DNA of 32,000 nt from Acaryochloris thomasi RCC1774 (GTDB lineage Bacteria; Cyanobacteriota; Cyanobacteriia; Thermosynechococcales; Thermosynechococcaceae): NCBI RefSeq assembly GCF_003231495.1, contig NZ_PQWO01000010.1:1-32000 (forward strand), in the 5' to 3' direction. This document shows, piece by piece, positions 4,655 through 13,987 of this stretch (positions within the stretch are counted from its first letter, which is position 1; every line of letters starts with the position of its first letter). The notes under the pieces are model-generated. The model searched no databases, had not been told where the DNA came from, and was given only the letters and a program-made list of their open reading frames with translations. The position numbers and the translations under genes are program-made.

Positions 4655-5890
4655 TTACCCCTTCACATTCACCACCTGCCGTAGTGAATGCACTACATCG
4701 ACAAGATCAGTTTGAGCCGCCATCACCTGATCGATATCTTTGTAGGCGGCTGGGCTTTCATCCAACACTTCAGAATCGAGTCGGGCCGAGATGCCTTTCA
4801 ACGCCGCTTGATGTTGCTCAAGCGTAATCTCTCGGCGGGCTTGTCCCCGAGACATGCGCCGACCAGCACCGTGAGAACAAGAGCAGAAGCTATCTTTGCT
4901 CCCTTTGCCTTTGACGATGTAAGAGGCAGTTCCCATAGAGCCAGGGATAATGCCCAGCTCGTCTTCACGGGCGCTGACAGCTCCCTTGCGAGTCACCCAG
5001 ACATTATTGCCATAGTGATTCTCTCTGCGAATGTAGTTGTGATGGCAGTTGACCGCCATCTCTGTCACAGAGACCTCTAGCTCTGGCAGCACAGATCGAA
5101 TCGCCTCAAGCGTTCGCTTCATCATCACCTTGCGGTTGGCTAAGGCGAAATCTTGGGCAAAGGCCACCGCTTCGACATAATCGTCGAATAGCTCAGAATG
5201 CTCCACCAGATAGGCCAAATCCTTATCGGGTAGAAATTGATCGATAAAGTACCGTTCCATTTCTTGCTTGGCTTTGCGGATGAAGTAGGAGCCAATCCGG
5301 TTCCCTAGACCTCTAGAGCCAGAATGGAGCATGACCCAGATGCGATCGCATTCATCCAAACACACTTCAATGAAGTGGTTGCCAGTTCCCAGCGTTCCCA
5401 GATGACGGGCGTTGTTCTTGCTAATCGCCTTGGGATGCTTGGACTCAATGAGCTGATAGCGAGACTCAAACCCTTTCCAGAAGGTGCTGACAATCTCAGG
5501 CAGGTCATGCCATGCACCGCGATCGCCACGTCCCCCATTATCAGTCCGACCGTGAGGCACCACGGACTCAATGGCAGACCGCATCGCATCCAGATTATCG
5601 GGTAGGTCGTTCGCTGTCAGAGTGGTTTGCAAAGCCATCATCCCGCAGCCCAGATCCACACCGACGGCGGCGGGGACCACTGCGCCTTTAGTGGCAATGA
5701 CAGAGCCGATGGTTGCGCCTCTGCCCCAGTGGACATCGGGCATGGCAGCGACATGTTTGTAGATGAAGGGTAGACTGGCGACGTTTTTGAGCTGTGCGAT
5801 CGCTTCTTCGCCGACATCGACGCCTTTAATCCAGGCTTTGATGGGGTGCCCACTTTTGTGGGCCATGTACTCAAAATTTACTTTGGTCAT
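4655..5890 (-). CDS. rtcB: RNA-splicing ligase RtcB (3'-phosphate/5'-hydroxyl RNA ligase)
   Basis: 411 aa with RtcB motifs GTGNHFIE, HSGSRGLG, NCHHNY, PGSMG and SCSHGAGR. An AAGGAGG RBS lies upstream of the ATG. Confidence 0.93.
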   Translation of the reverse strand: MTKVNFEYMAHKSGHPIKAWIKGVDVGEEAIAQLKNVASLPFIYKHVAAMPDVHWGRGATIGSVIATKGAVVPAAVGVDLGCGMMALQTTLTANDLPDNLDAMRSAIESVVPHGRTDNGGRGDRGAWHDLPEIVSTFWKGFESRYQLIESKHPKAISKNNARHLGTLGTGNHFIEVCLDECDRIWVMLHSGSRGLGNRIGSYFIRKAKQEMERYFIDQFLPDKDLAYLVEHSELFDDYVEAVAFAQDFALANRKVMMKRTLEAIRSVLPELEVSVTEMAVNCHHNYIRRENHYGNNVWVTRKGAVSAREDELGIIPGSMGTASYIVKGKGSKDSFCSCSHGAGRRMSRGQARREITLEQHQAALKGISARLDSEVLDESPAAYKDIDQVMAAQTDLVDVVHSLRQVVNVKG

Positions 5891-6047: not shown

Positions 6048-6389
6048 TTAGGGAAGCAACGTTTTCAGCTTCTTCATAACCTCATCGACAATCTCATCAG
6101 GGAGCTTGGCAATAAATTCAACGTTGCGCTTCTGCCAATCTAAGCTTTTGACTTGATCCGAGAGAATCACGCCCGAGACCTTTTCGTTTGACGGGATAAC
6201 AACTTCAAAGGGGTACCCCTTAACCCGGTTGGTAATAGGACACAAAAGTGCTAGACGGACTTTACGGTTGTAGGACAAAGGCGACAAGATCAAGGCTGGA
6301 CGCCTACCGGCTTGTTCATGTCCTATCTGAGGATTGAAGTCAATCCAAACCACATCACCCTGTTCTGGAACATAGATCATGTTCACCAA
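6048..6389 (-). CDS. Type II toxin, PemK/MazF-family endoribonuclease
   Basis: 113 aa. The N-terminus (PEQGDVVWIDFNPQIGHEQAGRRPALILSP) and the CPITNRVKGYPFEV segment are typical of MazF/PemK. It overlaps the upstream antitoxin by 7 nt. Confidence 0.88.
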   Translation of the reverse strand: MVNMIYVPEQGDVVWIDFNPQIGHEQAGRRPALILSPLSYNRKVRLALLCPITNRVKGYPFEVVIPSNEKVSGVILSDQVKSLDWQKRNVEFIAKLPDEIVDEVMKKLKTLLP

Positions 6390-6625
6390 GCCTCATTGCC
6401 AACGGAGGCTCCTGTCTCTACTTCAGCATGGATATTCTCTTCGGTAACATCTTCAAGTAGCTGTTCTAAGGAATAGCTGGCTTCAAGGATGGGAGTGATA
6501 ACCAATTTACCCTTAACCATACTTAACTCAACTTCAGTATCAGGCCGCAGAAGGATCTCTGCCGCAAATGATTTGGGAATCCGTAGGGCTAAGCTATTGC
6601 CCCACTTTTGCACTTTAGTTTTCAT
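6383..6625 (-). CDS. Type II antitoxin, AbrB/MazE/SpoVT family
   Basis: 80 aa. MKTKVQKWGNSLALRIPK is the SpoVT/AbrB swapped-hairpin signature. It is translationally coupled to the toxin. Confidence 0.85.
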   Translation of the reverse strand: MKTKVQKWGNSLALRIPKSFAAEILLRPDTEVELSMVKGKLVITPILEASYSLEQLLEDVTEENIHAEVETGASVGNEAW

Positions 6626-6954: not shown

Positions 6955-7422
6955 CTAGGCATCCAGCAGCTCTACTTGCCAGTTCAGAGCCTGTACCTGC
7001 GCATCTAGGAGGCGATGCTCCTGGGAGGCACGGTCGATCTGCCGCTGTAAATCGGCAATATCAACGGTACTGATAAACCGCACTTCTGAACGGCTGTAAC
7101 GATTTTGCGTAATTGAGGCTTCCTGAATTAAGTTTTCGAGGACGCTACGCTTGGTCATTAGTGTATCTCGCTGCGCTAGGGCGTCAGACAAGTTGCCGTT
7201 GTTAAACTCAGTGCTGGAGTTGGTGCGATTGATGCGCTGGATGAGGGTTGTTAGAGTTGCGATCGCATCTTCTAATTCCATCAACAGCTCTTGAGGGTTC
7301 TCAGGCGGCTGTTCACCCTCTTGCACTTTGGCACTGCGGTTTAGTCGCTGGCGTAGTTGCACAATTTTCTTTTGACAATCAGCCCGTTGAATTAGAGCTT
7401 CTGCAAGTTTCATCGGATTCAC
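6955..7422 (-). CDS. Conserved ~155-aa helical protein, resembling what I recall as the DIP1984 family (function unknown)
   Basis: A GGAGG RBS precedes the ATG. Family-like motifs are KLAEALIQRAD, AKVQEGEQPPENPQELL, INRTN, RYSRSE and ALNWQVEL. Confidence 0.6.
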   Translation of the reverse strand: MNPMKLAEALIQRADCQKKIVQLRQRLNRSAKVQEGEQPPENPQELLMELEDAIATLTTLIQRINRTNSSTEFNNGNLSDALAQRDTLMTKRSVLENLIQEASITQNRYSRSEVRFISTVDIADLQRQIDRASQEHRLLDAQVQALNWQVELLDA

Positions 7423-7529: not shown

Positions 7530-7613
7530 AGGAAGGTGGAGGAATCGAACCCCTACAGCAGGGCCATACCCTGGTTTTCAAGACCAGTTGCCGACCATTC
7601 AGCGGCACCTTCC
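7530..7613 (-). tRNA. tRNA-Ser(UGA), class II, atypical acceptor/D junction, no encoded CCA
   Basis: Acceptor GGAAGGT/ACCTTCC. Anticodon arm CTGGT-CTTGAAA-ACCAG. It has a long variable region. T arm AGGGG-TTCGATT-CCTCC. Confidence 0.6.
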
Positions 7614-7636
7614 ATGAGCCAATCGTGCGAAAGAAT

Positions 7637-7714
7637 TGGGTTGACCGACGGGACTTGAACCCGCTAACGCTAGAGTCACAACCTAGCTCCTCGTCCGCTT
7701 CGGATTCGGCCAAC
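7637..7714 (-). tRNA. tRNA-His(GUG) with encoded G-1 and CCA
   Basis: G-1 precedes TTGGCCG/CGGTCAA, with C73 and CCA. Anticodon arm CTAGG-TTGTGAC-TCTAG. T arm GCGGG-TTCAAGT-CCCGT. The D region is non-canonical. Confidence 0.6.
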
Positions 7715-7718
7715 ATAA

Positions 7719-7795
7719 TGGTGGATTCTGGTCGGATTTGAACCGACATCTTTCTGCTTGCAAAGCAGATGCTTTCCCAATTAAGCTACAGACCC
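7719..7795 (-). tRNA. tRNA-Ala(UGC) with a one-nt bulge in the 3' acceptor strand; CCA encoded
   Basis: 5' GGGTCTG and 3' CAGA[A]TCC-A-CCA. G3:U70 and A73 are kept if the extra A bulges out. Anticodon arm TCTGC-TTTGCAA-GCAGA. T arm GTCGG-TTCAAAT-CCGAC. Confidence 0.6.
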
Positions 7796-7798
7796 ATA

Positions 7799-7871
7799 CA
7801 GGAGTGGCAGGACTCGAACCTACACAGACCGATTTAGAAGATCGGTGCCCCATCCGTTGGGCGACACTCCC
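7799..7871 (-). tRNA. tRNA-Arg(UCU), no encoded CCA
   Basis: Acceptor GGGAGTG/CACTCCT. D stem GCCC/GGGC. Anticodon arm CCGAT-CTTCTAA-ATCGG. T arm GTAGG-TTCGAGT-CCTGC. Confidence 0.8.
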
Positions 7872-7877
7872 ATAAAA

Positions 7878-7948
7878 AGCGAGTGGTGAGATTCGCACTC
7901 ACGCGCTGGCGTTGGCACCGCCAGATGCTACTGCTACATCACACTCGC
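7878..7948 (-). tRNA. tRNA-Gly(GCC), T-loop with G55, no CCA
   Basis: Acceptor GCGAGTG/CACTCGC with U73. Anticodon arm TGGCG-GTGCCAA-CGCCA. T arm GTGAG-TGCGAAT-CTCAC. Confidence 0.7.
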
Positions 7949-7952
7949 CTAA

Positions 7953-8024
7953 AGCGGATAATGGGATTCAAACCCATATCAAAAGGGTGGAAGCCTTTCG
8001 TGCTAGCCGTTGCACCATATCCGC
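7953..8024 (-). tRNA. tRNA-Gly(UCC), no CCA
   Basis: Acceptor GCGGATA/TATCCGC with U73. Anticodon arm AAAGG-CTTCCAC-CCTTT. T arm ATGGG-TTTGAAT-CCCAT (U56 in place of C56). Confidence 0.75.
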
Positions 8025-8029
8025 AGGGT

Positions 8030-8105
8030 TGGGGCCGGTGACAGGAGTTGAACCTGCAACCTGCTGATTACAAATCAGTTGCTCTGCCAATTGAGCTACA
8101 CCGGC
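8030..8105 (-). tRNA. tRNA-Thr(UGU), CCA encoded
   Basis: Acceptor GCCGGTG/CACCGGC. D arm GCTC-AATTGGCA-GAGC. Anticodon loop TTTGTAA. T arm GCAGG-TTCAACT-CCTGT. Confidence 0.85.
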
Positions 8106-8108
8106 AAT

Positions 8109-8185
8109 TGGTAGCGGAGGTGAGAGTTGCACTCACAGATGTGCAGCTTATGAGACTGCCGAGCCTCTCTTTCTCCATCTCCGCC
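8109..8185 (-). tRNA. tRNA with CAU anticodon (elongator Met or Ile2), T-loop with G55, CCA encoded
   Basis: Acceptor GGCGGAG/CTCCGCT (G1:U72) with A73. Anticodon arm GCAGT-CTCATAA-GCTGC. T arm GTGAG-TGCAACT-CTCAC. Confidence 0.65.
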
Positions 8186-8432: not shown

Positions 8433-9110
8433 TTAATGGTTCTTAGCTTTTTGTCGCTTGTATTCGTAAAAAGCTTCATGCGCTTGCTTTTGGTCAGGAT
8501 ATTGCTGCATAAATTGAGCATATTTACGATCCTCTTCTTGAAACTCCGCGAGATCTGTAACAGCGATCAGGCCACCATATTCCTCTGAGAACGTGTAAGT
8601 GCCAGCATGAAGCTCATCAGCAAAGTTAGCTAACAAGGCTCTGAAAGATGGAGCCGACACCTCCATATCGAGGTCATCATGAATCAAAACTATAACTTGC
8701 CCTACTTGACCCTCTGGAGACGGATCTAGATCTAGACAACAGTGATCACCACACCCATTCCCCAACAGAGGAATCCATCGGAGATTGAACAAATCTGGCT
8801 TAATTGGTCCCTCTATTTCACGTTGAAAGTCTATTAGTGGCTCTGTTTCCAAAACCTCTCTCCAGATATCCCATTGACGAAAGATGTCCTCCAGAGAATA
8901 AAACTCTGTCCAGCCACTGAGAAAACCTTCCTCATCAAGCCTCCCGTTGTGAATTCGGTAAGACTCTCTCACATCTTCTGGGAACTCAATACCAAGCTTT
9001 GTCTCTGCATTCTTAATATCCTCTTCCGACGCACCTGGTTGAAGGAGAGGGATGATACTTGGTGCGTGAATAGCTAAGCCTGCCTCAATTCGATCCCAGA
9101 TTTCTTGCAT
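8433..9110 (-). CDS. SMI1/KNR4-family protein (immunity-protein-like fold)
   Basis: 225 aa. The stretch ASEEDIKNAETKLGIEFPEDVRESYRIHNG is the characteristic SMI1/KNR4 N-terminal motif. Confidence 0.75.
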   Translation of the reverse strand: MQEIWDRIEAGLAIHAPSIIPLLQPGASEEDIKNAETKLGIEFPEDVRESYRIHNGRLDEEGFLSGWTEFYSLEDIFRQWDIWREVLETEPLIDFQREIEGPIKPDLFNLRWIPLLGNGCGDHCCLDLDPSPEGQVGQVIVLIHDDLDMEVSAPSFRALLANFADELHAGTYTFSEEYGGLIAVTDLAEFQEEDRKYAQFMQQYPDQKQAHEAFYEYKRQKAKNH

Positions 9111-9287: not shown

Positions 9288-10583
9288 CTACTGAGCAACC
9301 CCAACCGACATCACCCGATCGCGGAACCACTTCTTCCCCGCATCAGTGACAGCCCTGTTTACATCCTTCCAAGAAAGCTGAGCCACTTCAAGTTCAGCCC
9401 CGCTCTCCTTCTGGACATCCATCGCCAGCCACTTCAGAAACGCCCCCATCTGAGATATCTCCAAACAACCGCTGCAGGCTTCAGTCACCCCCTGCTCCAA
9501 CCGAGCAGAAGTCACCACCAGATCCACAAACTGATCAATACTTTTGACCCGCTCAGGATCAAGCTGCACCGGCTTTTTGGTCTTAACTACCTGATGCTTT
9601 TCCCCCTTAGCCTTGAACATCAGCTCAGGATAGGTGAGACGATCAGCCGGGATGCTCTGGGGATAAAGCACAACACCTTCCCCCAAACCTTCAATCCCGA
9701 AGGTATCCTTCACCCAAGGATCGGTGTGTTCCACCTCAGTCACGAGTTGATTGATCGCTGTAGCAGCAGATTCCAACTGGTCTCGGCTACCGTAATCCAG
9801 CGTCAATGGCTCCCCCATGAAAGGCAGCACAAACACATCAGGGTGAGCAGGCAAAAGCTCAGCAATCTTCTCTGGATCAACCTCCAGCTTGGCGACTTCG
9901 TTTTCGACCCCGCCGGTCTGAACTGCAAAAACAGCAAAGATTTTGCGATCGATTTGAGAGATCGCCGTCCGTTTCTGAATTCCCTGACCGCACCATTCAC
10001 CAAACAGGGTGAGATGTTCACGGCCCGCCAACCGAGCGAAATAGTCGATGTGCTGGCTCACCCAATGGGCAAAGCCCATGTTGTCATCGCCCGGCGTAAT
10101 AATCTGAGAACGACTCTGAGCCGCCACCCGACCATCCGAGAACACCTGTACCCCAGCATTGGTACCATCCAGCTTAATTTTGGCTCGATAGGTCACTACC
10201 GGAGTGGCATCCAGAGCGATCAAATTCCGACGGACGTTATAGAGCAACTCCATACTCGGCCACCGCTGTAGCTGCACCGACTGGGCGACTGACTTTTGAC
10301 AGTACAGATCAGATAAATCTTGCCCTACAGGTGCATCTGTTTTACCCAAAGCCATACCGTAGGACACTAACCCCCGCAGCCTAGTGGCTTTAATTTTAGT
10401 GCCATCTTTGAGGACGGAGTTGACTTGAGCGATTGAGATGCGATCGCCCACCTCATAAACCCGCTCCAAATTAGCAATAATCTGAATCGCGGGGCATCCC
10501 GGAGCCTGCATTGCATAGACCTTGAGCGCATCAGCATTCAGATGCTGATTGACGCTTTTAACTTCCATAACCATGACAGTCAT
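9288..10583 (-). CDS. ATP-dependent RNA ligase (Rnl5/DraRnl-like nucleotidyltransferase) with an N-terminal OB, tRNA-binding-like module
   Basis: Ligase motifs are I KLDGTN, III/IIIa LFGEWCGQGIQ, IV GEGVVLYP and V FKAKGEKH. The N-terminal ~90 aa (LNADALKVY...GDRISIAQVNSVLKDGTKIKATRLRGLVSYGMAL) resemble a Trbp111/CsaA-type OB fold. An AAGGAGG RBS lies 7 nt upstream of the ATG at 10583. Confidence 0.8.
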   Translation of the reverse strand: MTVMVMEVKSVNQHLNADALKVYAMQAPGCPAIQIIANLERVYEVGDRISIAQVNSVLKDGTKIKATRLRGLVSYGMALGKTDAPVGQDLSDLYCQKSVAQSVQLQRWPSMELLYNVRRNLIALDATPVVTYRAKIKLDGTNAGVQVFSDGRVAAQSRSQIITPGDDNMGFAHWVSQHIDYFARLAGREHLTLFGEWCGQGIQKRTAISQIDRKIFAVFAVQTGGVENEVAKLEVDPEKIAELLPAHPDVFVLPFMGEPLTLDYGSRDQLESAATAINQLVTEVEHTDPWVKDTFGIEGLGEGVVLYPQSIPADRLTYPELMFKAKGEKHQVVKTKKPVQLDPERVKSIDQFVDLVVTSARLEQGVTEACSGCLEISQMGAFLKWLAMDVQKESGAELEVAQLSWKDVNRAVTDAGKKWFRDRVMSVGVAQ

Positions 10584-10665
10584 CACACACCTCCTTTGGT
10601 TAGCTGACTACGGTGAATAACATAAACAATAGAGAGACTTAGCTCCCTCACCCCAGGGGGGATGA

Positions 10666-10738
10666 TGGGCTGTGTAGGGATCGAACCTACGCACTTTCGC
10701 TTAAGAGGCGACTGCTCTACCAACTGAGCTAACAACCC
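10666..10738 (-). tRNA. tRNA-Lys(CUU), no CCA
   Basis: Acceptor GGGTTGT/ACAGCCC with A73. D arm GCTC-AGTTGGTA-GAGC. Anticodon arm GTCGC-CTCTTAA-GCGAA. T arm GTAGG-TTCGATC-CCTAC. Confidence 0.85.
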
Positions 10739-10813
10739 TGGTGGGCCGCCCAGGGGTTGAACCTGGATCTATCCGCTTAAAAGGCGGCTGCATATCCGCT
10801 CTGCCAGCGGCCC
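10739..10813 (-). tRNA. tRNA-Lys(UUU), CCA encoded
   Basis: Acceptor GGGCCGC/GCGGCCC with A73-CCA. Anticodon loop CTTTTAA. T arm CCAGG-TTCAACC-CCTGG. It abuts the previous gene with no spacer. Confidence 0.8.
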
Positions 10814-10815
10814 AT

Positions 10816-10893
<78 letters not shown>

Positions 10894-10897
10894 GAAG

Positions 10898-10971
10898 TAC
10901 TCCTGGTGGGAGTCGAACCCACAACCTCTGGTGTCTAAGACCAGCGCCTCTTCCGGTTGGGCTACAGGAGT
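10898..10971 (-). tRNA. tRNA with Leu anticodon UAG but a short variable region; no CCA
   Basis: Acceptor ACTCCTG/CAGGAGT with A73. Anticodon arm CTGGT-CTTAGAC-ACCAG. Variable region AGGTT. T arm GTGGG-TTCGACT-CCCAC. Confidence 0.7.
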
Positions 10972-10979
10972 ATGAACAG

Positions 10980-11054
10980 TCCGAGTGGCAGGATTTGAAC
11001 CTGCGACATCCTGGCCCCAAACCAGGCGCGCTGACCAAGCTGCGCCACACTCGG
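10980..11054 (-). tRNA. tRNA-Pro(UGG), no CCA
   Basis: C1:G72 acceptor CCGAGTG/CACTCGG with A73. Anticodon arm CCTGG-TTTGGGG-CCAGG (G37). T arm GCAGG-TTCAAAT-CCTGC. Confidence 0.85.
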
Positions 11055-11059
11055 ATACT

Positions 11060-11135
11060 TGGTACTCCCGGTGAGACTTGAACTCACAACCTCTGGTGCT
11101 TGAAACCAGCGCCTCTTCCCATTGGGCTACAGGAG
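11060..11135 (-). tRNA. tRNA with Leu anticodon CAA but a short variable region; CCA encoded
   Basis: Acceptor GCTCCTG/CGGGAGT with A73. Anticodon arm CTGGT-TTCAAGC-ACCAG. Variable region AGGTT. T arm GTGAG-TTCAAGT-CTCAC. It is near-identical to 10898..10971 outside the anticodon loop. Confidence 0.7.
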
Positions 11136-11191
11136 CATAAAAAATTGAGAACTTGAAAAACGGATCTCGGAACTGTTCTCCGAATACCCGA

Positions 11192-11265
11192 TACTCCTGG
11201 CGGGAGTCGAACCCACAACAAACTGTGTTTAAGACAGCCGCGTCTACCAATTGCGCCACAGGAGT
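11192..11265 (-). tRNA. tRNA with Leu anticodon UAA but a short variable region; no CCA and no intron
   Basis: Acceptor ACTCCTG/CAGGAGT with A73. Anticodon arm GCTGT-CTTAAAC-ACAGT. Variable region TTGTT. T arm GTGGG-TTCGACT-CCCGC. Confidence 0.7.
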
Positions 11266-11320
11266 AAGAAAAGGAGACGTGAAGAGATCCAGGCAAATGG
11301 TCACTTTCAACAACCTCCAA

Positions 11321-11417
11321 CTGCCCCGCCAGGGTTCGTTCGCGTCAGCGTTTCCGAAGGAAATACCTAGAATTTCGCTGTCAAAGAGCGAAGTGTTTCC
11401 AGTTACACCACAGGGCA
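11321..11417 (-). tRNA. tRNA-Gln(UUG)-like gene with ~25 extra nt inside the T-loop (pseudogene or interrupted tRNA)
   Basis: U1:A72 acceptor TGCCCTG/CGGGGCA with G73. D arm GTGT-AACTGGAA-ACAC. Anticodon arm TCGCT-CTTTGAC-AGCGA. T stem CTAGG/CCTGG encloses 32 nt, including hairpin TTTCC-TTC-GGAAA. Confidence 0.45.
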
Positions 11418-11422
11418 AGGAA

Positions 11423-11497
11423 TGGATGCCGAGGTAGGGGTTGCACCTACAACCTCCTGATTCAGAGTCAGGCGACTTGCTATTCGTCCACTCGGCA
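11423..11497 (-). tRNA. tRNA-Gln(CUG), T-loop with G55, CCA encoded
   Basis: U1:A72 acceptor TGCCGAG/CTCGGCA. Anticodon arm CCTGA-CTCTGAA-TCAGG. T arm GTAGG-TGCAACC-CCTAC. Confidence 0.75.
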
Positions 11498-11502
11498 ATG
11501 AA

Positions 11503-11577
11503 TGGCTGGAGCGAGAGGAATCGAACCTCCAACTACCTGATTAACAGTCAGGCGTTCTGCCAGTTGAACTACACTCC
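11503..11577 (-). tRNA. tRNA-Asn(GUU), CCA encoded
   Basis: Acceptor TGGAGTG/CGCTCCA with G73. D arm GTTC-AACTGGCA-GAAC. Anticodon arm CCTGA-CTGTTAA-TCAGG. T arm GGAGG-TTCGATT-CCTCT. Confidence 0.85.
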
Positions 11578-11583
11578 ATCAAG

Positions 11584-11656
11584 CCCCCCAGGTCGGTTTT
11601 GAGCCGACGACCTCCTGTACTTCACACAGGCGCTACTACCTCTGAGCTACCGGGGG
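11584..11656 (-). tRNA. tRNA-Phe(GAA), atypical (C1:G72, G73, C54 in the T-loop), no CCA
   Basis: Acceptor CCCCCGG/CTGGGGG. Anticodon arm CCTGT-GTGAAGT-ACAGG. T arm GTCGG-CTCAAAA-CCGAC. Confidence 0.65.
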
Positions 11657-11681
11657 ATAAATTGACTTGCACAATTGGAAT

Positions 11682-11758
11682 TGGCGAGAACGGAAGGACT
11701 TGAACCCTCAATCTTCAGATTCGTAGTCTGAGATGTTATCCAGTTACACCACGTTCTC
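11682..11758 (-). tRNA. tRNA-Arg(ACG), CCA encoded
   Basis: Acceptor GAGAACG/CGTTCTC with G73. Anticodon arm TCAGA-CTACGAA-TCTGA. T arm GAGGG-TTCAAGT-CCTTC. Confidence 0.8.
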
Positions 11759-11762
11759 AAAG

Positions 11763-11846
11763 CGGAGAGAGAGGGAATCGAACCCCCAGTGGACTAAATC
11801 CACGACTGTTTAGCAAACAGATTGCCTTGCCAATGGCGATCTCTCC
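11763..11846 (-). tRNA. tRNA-Ser(GCU), class II, no CCA
   Basis: Acceptor GGAGAGA/TCTCTCC with G73. Anticodon loop TTGCTAA. Variable-arm hairpin GTGGA-TTTAG-TCCAC. T arm GGGGG-TTCGATT-CCCTC. Confidence 0.8.
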
Positions 11847-11851
11847 ATGTT

Positions 11852-11936
11852 TGGTAGGTCGGGCAGGAATTGAACCTGCAACGCAATCAGCGACTGCTTT
11901 ACAGGCAGTTGCCCACACCAGTAGGCGAGCCGACCT
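11852..11936 (-). tRNA. tRNA-Tyr(GUA), class II, CCA encoded
   Basis: Acceptor AGGTCGG/CCGACCT with A73. Anticodon arm ACTGC-CTGTAAA-GCAGT. It has a long variable arm. T arm GCAGG-TTCAATT-CCTGC. Confidence 0.8.
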
Positions 11937-11941
11937 ATGTG

Positions 11942-12033
11942 AATAGCGGTACACGTATCGATGAGGGCGTTCAAATGGCTGCTCCCATGTGTGCTCAAGA
12001 AGAGCTGCCCTCACTCAGCCGGGTACTGCTATT
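11942..12033. repeat. Structured spacer element S1 (~92 nt), paralogous to 12571..12661
   Basis: Outer stem AATAGCGGTAC/GTACTGCTATT. Conserved blocks ACACGTATCGATGAGG and CCTCACTCAGCCGGGT. Inner stem GAGGGC/GCCCTC. Confidence 0.7.
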
Positions 12034-12109
12034 GGGAGTGGTGACGGGGATTGAACCCGCAATCACTTGGATGAAAGCCAAGCCGCTTAAGCCATTTGCG
12101 TACACCACT
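12033..12109 (-). tRNA. tRNA-Glu(UUC), CCA encoded
   Basis: Acceptor AGTGGTG/CACCACT. Anticodon arm CTTGG-CTTTCAT-CCAAG. T arm GCGGG-TTCAATC-CCCGT. Confidence 0.75.
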
Positions 12110-12118
12110 TCATGAACT

Positions 12119-12141
12119 GCCTGAACCAAACCAGTTCAGGC
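12119..12141. other. Inter-tRNA stem-loop (8-bp stem), possibly a processing or attenuation hairpin
   Basis: GCCTGAAC-caaacca-GTTCAGGC, between tRNA-Trp and tRNA-Glu. No U-tract follows on the minus strand. Confidence 0.45.
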
Positions 12142-12143
12142 AA

Positions 12144-12214
12144 CGCGGAGACTAGGATTTGAACCCAGAACATCAGCTTTGGAGGCTGAGGTGTTGCCAT
12201 TACACCATCCCCGC
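12144..12214 (-). tRNA. tRNA-Trp(CCA), no encoded CCA end
   Basis: Acceptor GCGGGGA/TCTCCGC. D arm GTGT-AATGGCA-ACAC. Anticodon arm TCAGC-CTCCAAA-GCTGA. T arm CTGGG-TTCAAAT-CCTAG. Confidence 0.8.
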
Positions 12215-12219
12215 ATATT

Positions 12220-12304
12220 GCAACTGGCGTATTGATTAGGACGTCTTAAAGGTTGAACCCGATCTAGAGTGTTCTTCCATCGTCTTAACTCAACAGTCAG
12301 TTGC
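12220..12304. other. tRNA-sized (85 nt) element closed by a perfect 7-bp stem, without a recognisable cloverleaf
   Basis: GCAACTG ... CAGTTGC termini. Inside are a GGGTTCAACC T-loop-like remnant (minus strand) and the direct repeat TTAAGACG. Confidence 0.35.
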
Positions 12305-12310
12305 GATAGG

Positions 12311-12382
12311 TTGCAGTGGCGGGAGTTGAACCCGCATCTTCTTGGTTATGAGCCAAGCGCCTTGCCGTTAGGCTACACTGCG
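12311..12382 (-). tRNA. Initiator-like tRNA-Met(CAU) with a C1xA72 mismatch, no CCA
   Basis: 5' CGCAGTG and 3' CACTGCA give unpaired C1/A72, with A73. D arm GCCT-AACGGCA-AGGC. Anticodon arm CTTGG-CTCATAA-CCAAG. T arm GCGGG-TTCAACT-CCCGC. Confidence 0.75.
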
Positions 12383-12387
12383 CCACT

Positions 12388-12463
12388 TGGAGTCCAGGGT
12401 GGGATTTGAACCCACGATATCGATGTTGCAGACCGACGCCTTTGAGCACTTGGCAACCTGGAC
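12388..12463 (-). tRNA. tRNA-Cys(GCA), CCA encoded
   Basis: Acceptor GTCCAGG/CCTGGAC with U73. Anticodon arm TCGGT-CTGCAAC-ATCGA. T arm GTGGG-TTCAAAT-CCCAC. Confidence 0.85.
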
Positions 12464-12497
12464 ACATGACTAATGACAAATTGTCGCTAGCAATAAG

Positions 12498-12571
12498 AAG
12501 TCTCGACGGGAGTTGCACCCGCTTCTCCTTGGCTGAGAACCAAAGCGACTTATCTAATCGTCCACGAGATA
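12498..12571 (-). tRNA. tRNA-Glu(CUC)-like, frayed acceptor end, T-loop with G55; possible pseudogene
   Basis: Anticodon arm TTTGG-TTCTCAG-CCAAG. T arm GCGGG-TGCAACT-CCCGT. Only 5 of 7 acceptor pairs form (TATCTCG/CGAGACT). Confidence 0.45.
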
Positions 12572-12661
12572 TGGCGACACACGTATTGATGAGGACATCA
12601 TCTTGAGCAAAGAAACGATGGGTTCAAACACCAATGTCCTCACTCAGCCGGGTGTTGCCAT
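12571..12661. repeat. Structured spacer element S2 (~91 nt), paralogous to 11942..12033
   Basis: Outer stem ATGGCGACAC/GTGTTGCCAT. Conserved blocks ACACGTATTGATGAGG and CCTCACTCAGCCGGGT. Inner stem GAGGACAT/ATGTCCTC. Confidence 0.7.
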
Positions 12662-12669
12662 ACTTGTAA

Positions 12670-12744
12670 CGGGGGAAACGAGATTCGAACTCGCGATCTT
12701 TCGCTCGACAGGCGACTGCTTTAGACCGGCTAAGCTACACCCCC
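12670..12744 (-). tRNA. tRNA-Asp(GUC), first gene of the array, no CCA
   Basis: Acceptor GGGGGTG/TTCCCCC (one U:U) with G73. D arm GCTT-AGCCGGTCTA-AAGC. Anticodon loop CTGTCGA. T arm GCGAG-TTCGAAT-CTCGT. Confidence 0.75.
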
Positions 12745-12911
12745 AGAAATGGCGGTCAATGCATTGAGTCAGACGTTTAATCGCTTTAACGATTCGGGAG
12801 AAGGCTCCCATTTCTACACTCAGTTGTTGACTGCCAAAATGTGGCAAATAATATTCAGTTGTCTAGGTTCAGAAATTGTTTTTGGCCCCGAAGGTGGAGC
12901 GCATTACATTT

Positions 12912-12952
12912 ATACTACAAACATACTACATAAATGTCAAGGGCATACTACA
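12912..12952 (-). promoter_or_regulatory. Candidate sigma70-type promoter of the tRNA island, overlaid by three phased TGTAGTAT repeats
   Basis: The minus strand reads cttGTAGTATgcccTTGACAtttaTGTAGTATgtttGTAGTATaaatg. This gives -35 TTGACA (12940..12935), a 17-nt spacer and -10 TAGTAT (12917..12912). Repeat copies are at 12912-12919, 12923-12930 and 12945-12952, spaced 11 and 22 bp. Confidence 0.5.
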
Positions 12953-13033: not shown

Positions 13034-13417
13034 CTAAATTACAGACGTGAGGGGTAAACCCGCCGCATGCCACAAACGATGAAGAATGAGTTCAGTCTCA
13101 TAGTCGTAGGCTGCGAGAAACATCCCTTCATGGGCGTCGATGGTTTGAGCCATCCAGGTGCCGCCGAGATCAACTTCGACATATTCGGCATCGACACAGG
13201 TGATCTCTAGGGTCTCGGCATATCGGTGCAGAGCCGCATCTAGAGCCTCCAGTCCAGGCGCTTGGATGGGAAGCAAGAAAGACGCTAGGCCCATCTCGAC
13301 GTGCAGGCTTCGACCGATGCGAACGCTCAAAATCACGTGCTGAGAGACCACCGCCTCTAGGGAAGCTGCTTCGTAGTCCATGTGCAGCCCCAGTTCGGTG
13401 TAAATCAATTTCAACAT
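13034..13417 (-). CDS. Hypothetical protein (127 aa)
   Basis: Intact ORF with a GGAGA RBS-like sequence upstream and its own terminator. I recognise no family. Confidence 0.5.
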   Translation of the reverse strand: MLKLIYTELGLHMDYEAASLEAVVSQHVILSVRIGRSLHVEMGLASFLLPIQAPGLEALDAALHRYAETLEITCVDAEYVEVDLGGTWMAQTIDAHEGMFLAAYDYETELILHRLWHAAGLPLTSVI

Positions 13418-13474: not shown

Positions 13475-13987
13475 TCAGGGTGTGGGCTGGCTTTTCCAAA
13501 ACTGGTCGGCAAACGCCACGGCGGGATGGATCGGTGCTTTGGGTTTGGTGAACAAGGTCATGCCTGCTTGTTTGGGGGTGCGATCGCTTTTCCCACAGTT
13601 ACAAGATTCACAGGCGGCAACCACGTTGTCCCAGGTGTGCAGTCCACCCTTTGAGCGCGGAATCACGTGATCGAGCGTCAGCTTCCGGCTGCTGTTGCAG
13701 TACTGGCAGCGATGCTGATCACGCTTGAGGACTTCGCGCCGATTCACCGGAGGAATCTTCCACTGGCGCTCTGGGTTGCCCATCAACAGGCGGATGTGTT
13801 CTGAGACCTGGAGGATCGTGGAGGGCGATCGCACTTCCCACATCTGGGTATTACCAAAGTCCAGCGCCTCAGCCTGTTCCGTCACCAGCAGCACAATGGC
13901 GCGCTTAATGTTGATCTTGGCTAGGGGTAAATACGCCTTGGAAAAGACCACCACGGAATTTTGTAATACGGCGTGTTGTACAGTCAT
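13475..13987 (-). CDS. HNH endonuclease (McrA-like)
   Basis: HNH core CQYCNSSRKLTLDHVIPRSKGGLHTWDNVVAACESCNCGK. Confidence 0.85.
   Translation of the reverse strand: MTVQHAVLQNSVVVFSKAYLPLAKINIKRAIVLLVTEQAEALDFGNTQMWEVRSPSTILQVSEHIRLLMGNPERQWKIPPVNRREVLKRDQHRCQYCNSSRKLTLDHVIPRSKGGLHTWDNVVAACESCNCGKSDRTPKQAGMTLFTKPKAPIHPAVAFADQFWKSQPTP

Follow-up and report, generated by a model that had tools for sequence, protein, structure and literature searches.

A family of self-complementary hairpin elements of about 90 nt, here called S0, S1, S2 and S3, was found in a tRNA array of Acaryochloris thomasi RCC1774. The array lies in a 32,000-nt stretch of contig NZ_PQWO01000010.1 (the window; coordinates count from its start). 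A preliminary description of this DNA had reported S1 and S2; we confirmed that observation, raised the number of copies to four and found orthologues in two other contigs. We tentatively favour the explanation that the S family is a locally amplified palindromic element, similar to miniature inverted-repeat transposable elements (MITEs) or repetitive extragenic palindromic (REP) sequences, which folds on itself inside the polycistronic tRNA precursor and belongs to a family not described before. Favouring this explanation are the status of the elements as insertions, their narrow range, the presence of four copies within 900 bp, their mosaic relationships and the imprecise insertion of S2, together with the maintained pairing, the expression context and the documented occurrence of template switching.

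Four copies of a hairpin with maintained pairing

The coordinates and sequences of S1 and S2 (Table 1) were as first described, and ARAGORN placed both elements in slots between tRNA genes, in the minus-strand order Glu(UUC), S1, Tyr and Asp, S2, Glu(CUC). The blocks shared by the two elements, ACACGTAT(C/T)GATGAGG and CCTCACTCAGCCGGGT on the plus strand, each occurred exactly twice in the window, in S1 and S2 only; their tRNA-sense (minus-strand) sequences are CCGGCTGAGTGAGG and CCTCATCRATACGTGT. The outer stems were AATAGCGGTAC/GTACTGCTATT in S1 and ATGGCGACAC/GTGTTGCCAT in S2, differing at three pairs, all three of them compensatory, and one mismatch, G:T when read on the plus strand and A:C on the minus strand, occupied an identical position in both. 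The two elements also had different, yet paired, inner stems, GAGGGC/GCCCTC in S1 and GAGGACAT/ATGTCCTC in S2. Folding of the minus strand gave −37.5 and −35.4 kcal/mol for S1 and S2, with z values of −4.1 and −4.2 against dinucleotide shuffles, respectively. The corresponding z values of the plus strand were −2.8 and −5.6.

Related arrays were gathered from contigs around homologues of the HNH endonuclease encoded upstream of the array and were labelled L001 and so on (L001 is from Kovacikia, L003 from Nostoc, L007 is ERZ6864208 and L012 is GCA_020357715.1). For the HNH and Alr0857 proteins of the window itself, exact-protein look-ups gave no record. The search for further copies yielded two beyond S1 and S2 in the same array, S3 and S0, and orthologues of these in L007 and L012. 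S3 was detected by a motif-plus-stem scan and by inspection of the spacers, and it aligned in register with S1 and S2. A first covariance model, built from S1, S2, S3 and the two S3 orthologues, found S0, which also aligned in register with S1–S3. The resulting alignment of eight sequences, made up of the family copies of the window and the L007 and L012 orthologues, showed no register shifts in stems and blocks. A second covariance model, run with filters off over the whole window, returned only the four copies, and over 21 related loci it matched only S0 and S3 of L007 and L012; orthologues of S1 and S2 were found nowhere among these loci. The copies are arranged along the operon in the order S0, S2, S3, S1, and all of them end 0–5 nt before a tRNA 5′ end, on the tRNA strand.

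Table 1. Positions of the S elements, their conserved blocks, their orthologues and the surrounding features (window coordinates unless L007 or L012 is named)
Feature	Position	Strand	Remarks
S0, leader copy	12744–12840	−	ends 5 nt before first tRNA (Asp); 23.7 bits, E 0.008
S0 orthologue in L007	4582–4677		29.8 bits
S0 orthologue in L012	12123–12212		15.3 bits
S1 hairpin element	11940–12035 (hairpin proper 11942–12033)	−	between tRNA-Glu(UUC) and tRNA-Tyr; covariance models 88.3 and 79.4 bits
S1 5′ conserved block CCGGCTGAGTGAGG	12009–12022	−	holds internal-loop 5′ strand GCUGAGU; TGAGT/TAAGT core invariant in family alignment
S1 3′ conserved block CCTCATCGATACGTGT	11951–11966	−	holds internal-loop 3′ strand AUCRAUA
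S2 hairpin element	12568–12664 (hairpin proper 12571–12661)	−	between tRNA-Asp and tRNA-Glu(CUC); covariance models 94.9 and 84.3 bits
S2 5′ conserved block CCGGCTGAGTGAGG	12638–12651	−	
S2 3′ conserved block CCTCATCAATACGTGT	12579–12594	−	
S3, more divergent copy	12214–12310	−	between tRNA-Met and tRNA-Trp; covariance models 95.9 and 82.3 bits
S3 orthologue in L012	12542–12640		
S3 orthologue in L007	5049–5120		apex deleted
tRNA-Glu(CUC)	12497–12571	−	immediately 3′ of S2; 5′ end TATCTCG
Promoter-proximal tRNA block	10666–12745	−	19 ARAGORN tRNA genes; hosts S1, S2, S3
trn-operon promoter	12912–12952	−	TTGACA, 17 nt, TAGTAT and three TGTAGTAT boxes, TrcR operator type
RtcB	4655–5890		RNA-repair/toxin neighbourhood of array
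MazF/MazE	6048–6625		RNA-repair/toxin neighbourhood of array
DUF6847	6955–7422		RNA-repair/toxin neighbourhood of array
SUKH-1 immunity-type protein	8433–9110		RNA-repair/toxin neighbourhood of array
Rnl-type RNA ligase with tRNA-binding domain	9288–10586		RNA-repair/toxin neighbourhood of array
Alr0857-family gene	13034–13417		just upstream of array
HNH endonuclease gene	13475–13987		just upstream of array

Read on the tRNA-sense strand, the elements consist of an outer stem of 10–13 bp, a 2-bp C-G/G-C clamp, a conserved internal loop of about 7 × 7 nt (5′-GCUGAGU opposite 5′-AUCRAUA), an inner stem of 6–9 bp and an apex of 35–45 nt. The sixth pair of the outer stem was A.C in S1, S2 and the S0 sequence designated S0w, C.A in S0b, and A-U in S0a and S3. 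From its conservation, the internal loop is a probable recognition site. The apex is fast-evolving and was conserved between orthologues only: it was largely deleted in S3 of L007, which retained both stems and the internal loop, it was inverted in S2, and it formed two small hairpins in S0. The inversion between S1 and S2 had been noted before and was recovered with modest strength, since the best local alignment scored 10 in inverted and 7 in direct orientation, with a maximum of 9 among 200 shuffles. For S2 and S3 the scores were 9 inverted and 6 direct, and the inverted scores equalled or exceeded the maximum of the 200 shuffles. The S2 apex is therefore inverted relative to both S1 and S3, at this modest strength.

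Pairing was maintained by compensatory change throughout the family. Across the eight members, 79.6% of cells were paired, compared with 29–47% in slid controls, and double-sided changes were found in 10 of 19 pairs. The covariation score was 0.43, a value reached by 0 of 500 shuffles, for which the score was 0.19. Independently, RNAalifold recovered the same two helices, with compensatory changes in 10 of the 15 pairs that it predicted. The covariation had been taken to suggest a functional RNA, or a cruciform or recombination structure, matching no known class. The maintained pairing and the lack of a matching class were both borne out, whereas a functional RNA is not proven by the covariation; the elements are recent, lineage-restricted and multiplied within one array. 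A single template switch during replication is documented to yield both multi-base compensatory changes and inverted loops (PMC8794818), and such switching, or recombination between arms, would explain the differences between S1 and S2 without many independent selected substitutions.

On the sense strand, most stem mismatches were A.C or C.A and would be G.U if the opposite strand were read. About 6 events were of this kind and about 2 of the reverse kind, a difference that is not significant. By minimum free energy, four elements favoured the antisense strand and two the sense strand, and two differed by no more than 1 kcal/mol. The mismatch pattern and the folding energies do not decide between the strands or between RNA and DNA. 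No plus-strand promoter-like site reading through S1–S3 was found in the window, and the sense strand is, as judged from promoter motifs, the only strand with a supported promoter. A plus-strand promoter-like site, TTGACT-16-TAATAT at 12827–12855, matches by consensus only; it overlaps the 5′ arm of S0 and faces away from the array, antisense into the trn promoter region.

Insertion between adjacent tRNA genes

In related arrays of Nostoc, Tolypothrix, Kovacikia and several metagenomic contigs, the tRNA genes that flank the S elements are direct neighbours. Tyr and Glu(UUC) were 1–10 nt apart in L003, L007, L012, L013 and L031, and S1 was absent from that junction in L003, L007, L012 and L031. 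Glu(CUC) and Asp were 2–9 nt apart in L003, L007, L012, L013 and L031, and Met and Trp were 2–3 nt apart in L003 and L016. In an alignment with related arrays, S2 appeared as a clean block of about 90 nt missing from L007, L012, L013 and L017. The leaders of eight arrays (L002, L003, L009, L010, L013, L016, L017 and L024) were free of S0 and read ...ACTGAATA(A)TTGCCAC...|GGGGGTG, straight into tRNA-Asp; plasmid arrays were free of S0 too. When the array segment and the leader were compared by BLAST with 72,556 plasmids, they hit 19 and 16 records, respectively, which matched the tRNAs and the promoter and skipped S0–S3. Among them, the plasmid arrays of Nostoc, Tolypothrix, Calothrix and Kovacikia matched the tRNAs around the S elements but not the elements themselves. 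Because the flanking tRNAs are directly adjacent in related arrays, the S elements are lineage-specific insertions.

Among the arrays compared, S0 and S3 were common to the window, L007 and L012, and S1 and S2 were present in the window only. This distribution, with S0 and S3 at three loci and S1 and S2 at one, indicates that the family arose and multiplied within a small clade, in which the gain of S1 and S2 most probably postdates the split from L007. Mosaic relationships link the copies: the outer stem is S0-like in S1 (GCAGT) and S3-like in S2 (GCAAC), and in both elements the 3′ block is S3-like and the A.C mismatch S0-like. This pattern suggests exchange among copies. A pattern specific to S1 and S2 gave 0 matches in IMG/VR and 3 matches in 185,579 GTDB species genomes, all of which lacked the stems and were chance matches; a family-wide pattern gave 4 matches in JGI metagenomes, again by chance. 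The first pattern covered S1 and S2 alone, and the scanned collections seem to lack the source genome, so the rarity of the family is partly a statement about sampling. The SasA protein of the window was 97% identical to a protein of the metagenome-assembled genome (MAG) 'Cyanobacteria bacterium P01_A01_bin.17' and about 70% identical to proteins of Thermosynechococcaceae MAGs, and the source lineage is thinly sampled.

The insertion of S2 was imprecise and replaced 2 nt of the next tRNA, Glu(CUC). In arrays without S2, this tRNA starts with AGTCTCG (L012, L013 and L017) or AGTTCCG (L007), whereas in the window its altered 5′ end faces the 3′ end CGAGACT, so that the acceptor pairs 1-72 and 2-71 are lost. 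The loss of these first two pairs coincides with the S2 insertion. The window tRNA-Glu(CUC) was below the Rfam tRNA threshold as well, so it is probably a pseudogene here. The ends of the other flanking tRNAs were intact.

A separate small hairpin, CCTGAAC...GTTCAGG, was found in the 33-nt spacer between tRNA-Trp and tRNA-Glu(UUC), at 12110–12142 on the minus strand of the window, 5190–5222 of L007 and 12710–12743 of L012. Its pairing was kept despite changes in L012 (CCTGGGTC...GGTCCAGG). Hairpins in spacers thus seem to be generally characteristic of this clade of arrays.

Repeat, host module or DNA structure

The proposed mechanism starts from the trn promoter. TTGACA-17-TAGTAT itself was found at 12940–12912 on the minus strand, with TrcR-type boxes upstream, and a TrcR-repressed promoter with the same motif and −10 box has been shown experimentally for the trn operon of Anabaena (PMC10272220). 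With this promoter, everything below about 12905 on the minus strand is expected to form one primary transcript, and since S0–S3 all lie on the tRNA strand downstream of it, their co-transcription and excision with the tRNAs are expected. An element of about 90 nt would have entered the promoter-proximal end of the operon and multiplied there, so that it now occupies the leader and three inter-tRNA spacers, spreading by local copying or recombination as a small non-autonomous palindromic repeat would, and unlike an ancient RNA gene. After transcription within the polycistronic pre-tRNA, RNase P would cut at the 5′ end of the next tRNA and RNase Z or RNase E at the 3′ end of the previous one, releasing a hairpin RNA of about 90–100 nt with paired ends. 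Two reasons for the kept pairing are conceivable: only self-folding inserts may be tolerated between tRNAs, and a copying or recognition factor may read the hairpin together with its internal loop. Template switching or recombination between arms would then have produced the multi-base compensatory changes and the inverted apex of S2.

In the adjacent HNH and Alr0857 genes, uncorrected differences at fourfold-degenerate sites amounted to 37% for the window and L007, 54% for the window and L012, and 57% for L007 and L012. S3 differed by 19%, 26% and 19% in the same comparisons (stems 10–21%) and S0 by about 24% and 36%, while orthologous tRNAs differed by 0–12% (Trp, for example, at 2–3 of about 72 positions). 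The S elements are more conserved than synonymous sites and far less conserved than tRNAs. The unrelated hairpin spacer between Trp and Glu(UUC) showed 18–31% differences, and because other spacers diverge to a similar intermediate extent, the rate test is weak. We read these values as purifying selection, weak to moderate in strength, that acts on the structure of spacers generally; they do not prove a dedicated function.

Several findings weigh against a palindromic repeat of this kind. Comparison of occupied with empty sites revealed no consistent target-site duplication or target motif at the four junctions; on either side of S0 there is an imperfect repeat, GCCA(CA)TTT / GCCATTT, part of which falls within the stem. 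The 32-kb window contained no gene for a transposase, an integrase or a Y1/RAYT protein, and no copies are known outside the array, with the search of the source genome limited to this window. Unlike pure junk, the S3 and S0 orthologues (19–26% and 24–36% differences) diverged less than fourfold sites (37–57%). Between S1 and S2, the internal loop differed at 1 of 14 positions and the stems at 8 of 38, and the apex was scrambled. The near-identical loop blocks point to a sequence-specific constraint that tolerance of an insert would by itself leave unexplained, and these blocks are the most constrained part and the likeliest recognition site.

The main rival explanation is a structured RNA module useful to the host, which the hairpin would have turned into or have been from the start. 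The S elements would then be processing, stability or protein-binding elements of the trn operon that are excised with the tRNAs. They could be entry sites for RNase III or RNase E, a block to exonucleases or a platform for an RNA-repair protein encoded beside the array, with the loop as recognition site, and the copies could have multiplied because they were useful in front of tRNAs. Such a role would fit the location of every copy in the operon, on the transcribed strand and just before a tRNA 5′ end. It would also fit the covarying stems, the slower change of S0 and S3 relative to fourfold sites, the best conservation in the loop blocks and the retention of stems and internal loop in L007 S3 despite loss of the apex. 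The neighbourhood is rich in RNA-repair genes (RtcB, MazF and an Rnl-type ligase with a tRNA-binding domain), and the second, unrelated hairpin spacer between Trp and Glu(UUC) covaries between arrays too. However, the S elements were absent from almost all such arrays, including those of close relatives with 83–90% identical HNH proteins, which indicates that they are dispensable for the function of the operon. The insertion of S2 damaged the adjacent tRNA, the elements matched none of 4227 Rfam families, and the sense-strand mismatches are mostly A.C, which is unfavourable in RNA, with G.U on the other strand. We consider a host-useful module rather unlikely, though it deserves serious attention.

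A more specific proposal, that the S RNAs form a new class of structured RNA from a tRNA operon induced by translational stress, excised by the nucleases that process tRNAs and bound by a specific protein at the conserved 7 × 7 loop, is improbable. Candidate loop binders would be the RNA ligase with a tRNA-binding domain encoded at the array, a toxin RNase and an RNase III-type enzyme, and the RNAs would act as processing guides, decoys or stabilisers of the operonic tRNAs.

The fold could also act at the DNA level, as a single-strand hairpin or cruciform recombination site on the strand opposite the tRNAs, of the attC type or of the IS200/IS605/REP type, that rearranges tRNA units. The conservation of the fold while the stem sequence varies would agree with this, as would the excess of G.T mismatches on the plus strand, the recurrent mismatch at one stem position (A.C, C.A or A-T) and the AAC...GTT in the outer stems of S3 and S0b; insertions, duplications and deletions are frequent in such arrays (PMC8421152). 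The S elements resemble attC sites in being imperfect hairpins in the range of 60–140 nt that conserve structure over sequence, possibly with a strand preference, between short units of the same orientation. They differ in that the window contains no IntI or other integrase gene, nor a transposase or RAYT gene, and in that the R″/R′ core (RYYYAAC/GTTRRRY) is not conserved, being GTACCGC in S1 and GTGTCGC in S2. An identity as integron attC sites was rejected on these grounds. The units here are tRNA genes, and their order around the S sites is the conserved one, with no sign of cassette shuffling. The folding energies favour neither strand and the mismatch bias lacks statistical significance. 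A DNA-level role has only a slim chance of being correct.

Known RNA classes were tested directly, as had been advised for these elements. A scan with Rfam 15 at gathering thresholds and at E ≤ 10 left the S elements unmatched in the range 11100–12900 except for noise, mir-392 at S2 with 20 bits against a threshold of 62, and they fit no known RNA class. Judged by eye, the conserved blocks do not fit a K-turn, C/D box, sarcin-ricin, hammerhead, hairpin ribozyme or group II domain 5, and Rfam supports none of these. An origin from the duplicated leader end (ACTGAATATTTGCCAC) was rejected, as no significant alignment was obtained. Some resemblance to tRNAs was noticed, including an 11-mer common to S2 and tRNA-Trp (by eye). 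A degenerate tRNA, a tRNA-like RNA or another known RNA (ribozyme, Y-RNA-like or T-box) is highly improbable: the slots are tRNA-sized, apical words such as GGGTTCAA in S2 and S3 are T-loop-like and S3 matches the T-arm of the preceding tRNA-Met at 14 of 15 nt, but ARAGORN and the Rfam models for tRNA (RF00005) and tRNA-Sec (RF01852) were negative at S0–S3 even at E ≤ 10, the best local alignments to the tRNAs of three arrays were matched by 11–87 of 100 shuffles, the fold is a single long hairpin and no cloverleaf, and homologous arrays have no gene at these positions.

Array context and wider meaning

Long cyanobacterial tRNA arrays are silent operons that are induced by translational stress, and to our knowledge their evolution and processing are little understood. 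ARAGORN identified 27 tRNA genes in the window, all on the minus strand, at 7530–8185 and 10666–12745, and an Rfam scan of the window found only tRNAs. The array has the features of a cyanobacterial L-type tRNA array or trn operon, being a long same-strand array with an HNH gene upstream and a TrcR-box promoter, and it is syntenic with the arrays of Nostoc, Tolypothrix and Kovacikia. The gene order HNH, Alr0857, array, ligase, DUF6847 was repeated in L007, L009 and L017. The remaining content of the window, with SasA, Fpg, CysH and glycosyltransferases, looks chromosomal.

Further features of these arrays were noted. No tRNA-Val or tRNA-Ile was called in the window array; Kovacikia L001 has both and Nostoc L003 has Val. 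In L001, the tRNA-Arg(ACG) call at 2469–2568 is 100 nt long with an insertion near the anticodon arm, and a gap of 351 nt at 140–490 seems to hold more interrupted tRNA genes. A terminator-like hairpin followed by a T-run (TTCGGAGAACAGTTCCGAG ATCCGTTTTT) was found between tRNA-Leu(UAA) and tRNA-Leu(CAA), at 11137–11189 on the minus strand of the window, and may be an internal attenuator. T-runs were present at the same junction in L013 and L016.

Similar hairpin insertions of about 25–55 nt were found inside the T-loop of several tRNA genes that ARAGORN misses, at 11267–11422 on the minus strand of the window, L007 4835–4976, L009 2525–2651, L016 11433–11568 and 11843–12009, L017 12643–12753 and L002 182–303. 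Affected genes include Gln(UUG) in the window; in the other arrays, Cys, Asn, Met and Ser are among them. Position 55 is replaced by the insertion, whose pattern is T-stem, T, (A/T)TCTCC-loop-GGAGACGCT-NN-CGCG-AACGA, T-stem. The pattern recurs across different tRNAs and arrays, beside RtcB and an Rnl-type ligase, and may represent an intron-like element or a site-specific mini-insertion. The trn-operon paper that was searched makes no mention of it.

Small non-autonomous palindromic repeats of bacteria include MITEs, REP sequences and bacterial interspersed mosaic elements (BIMEs), cyanobacterial small dispersed repeats and Nezha-type MITEs. The S elements resemble them in being non-coding, intergenic sequences of about 90 nt with diverged copies, whose end repeats fold as one hairpin, whose presence varies between close relatives and which are expected to be co-transcribed with their neighbours. 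Their ends pair as an outer stem of 10–13 bp in all eight sequences, as terminal inverted repeats of a MITE would. They differ from them in that the known copies are confined to one tRNA operon, the internal-loop blocks rather than the termini are conserved, and the orthologues are more conserved than synonymous sites. A TA target-site duplication of the IS630/mariner type was rejected because the TA positions are out of register when the outer stems are aligned. Likewise, REP or BIME sequences with RAYT were rejected, as the elements are about 90 nt long instead of palindromes of 20–40 bp, carry no GTAG/CGTC tag at the ends and have no Y1_Tnp-type protein in the window. For a known MITE or REP family, the terminal repeats are in favour and the missing consistent duplication, tag and RAYT are against, and the pairing of the copies is preserved.

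The tRNA gene cluster of phage T4 yields stable non-tRNA RNAs (species 1 and 2), and processing stems for RNase III are present in rRNA and tRNA operons. Like the S elements, these are structured non-tRNA segments of a polycistronic transcript with tRNAs that would be released by tRNA-maturing nucleases; by description, they differ in being fixed features of their operons, whereas the S elements are lineage-specific multiplied insertions. Template switching with inversion of hairpin loops (PMC8794818) is comparable in the multi-base compensatory changes and in the S2 loop, a reverse complement of the S1 and S3 loops within a retained flanking stem. It is a mutational mechanism and not a class of element, and it leaves the conserved loop and the spread to four sites unexplained.

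Taken from its sequence and distribution, the family appears to behave like a small palindromic repeat in an unusual niche, with its function unproven. It offers a compact natural example of palindromic inserts that spread and persist inside a polycistronic RNA gene cluster, in which an element has colonised the leader and the spacers, kept its fold by compensatory change, flipped one apex and damaged one tRNA. A stable, protein-bound S RNA would be a new non-tRNA product of these stress operons. Should the element be no more than a tolerated selfish insert, it would serve as a warning that clean covariation among a small number of paralogues is not enough to establish an RNA gene.

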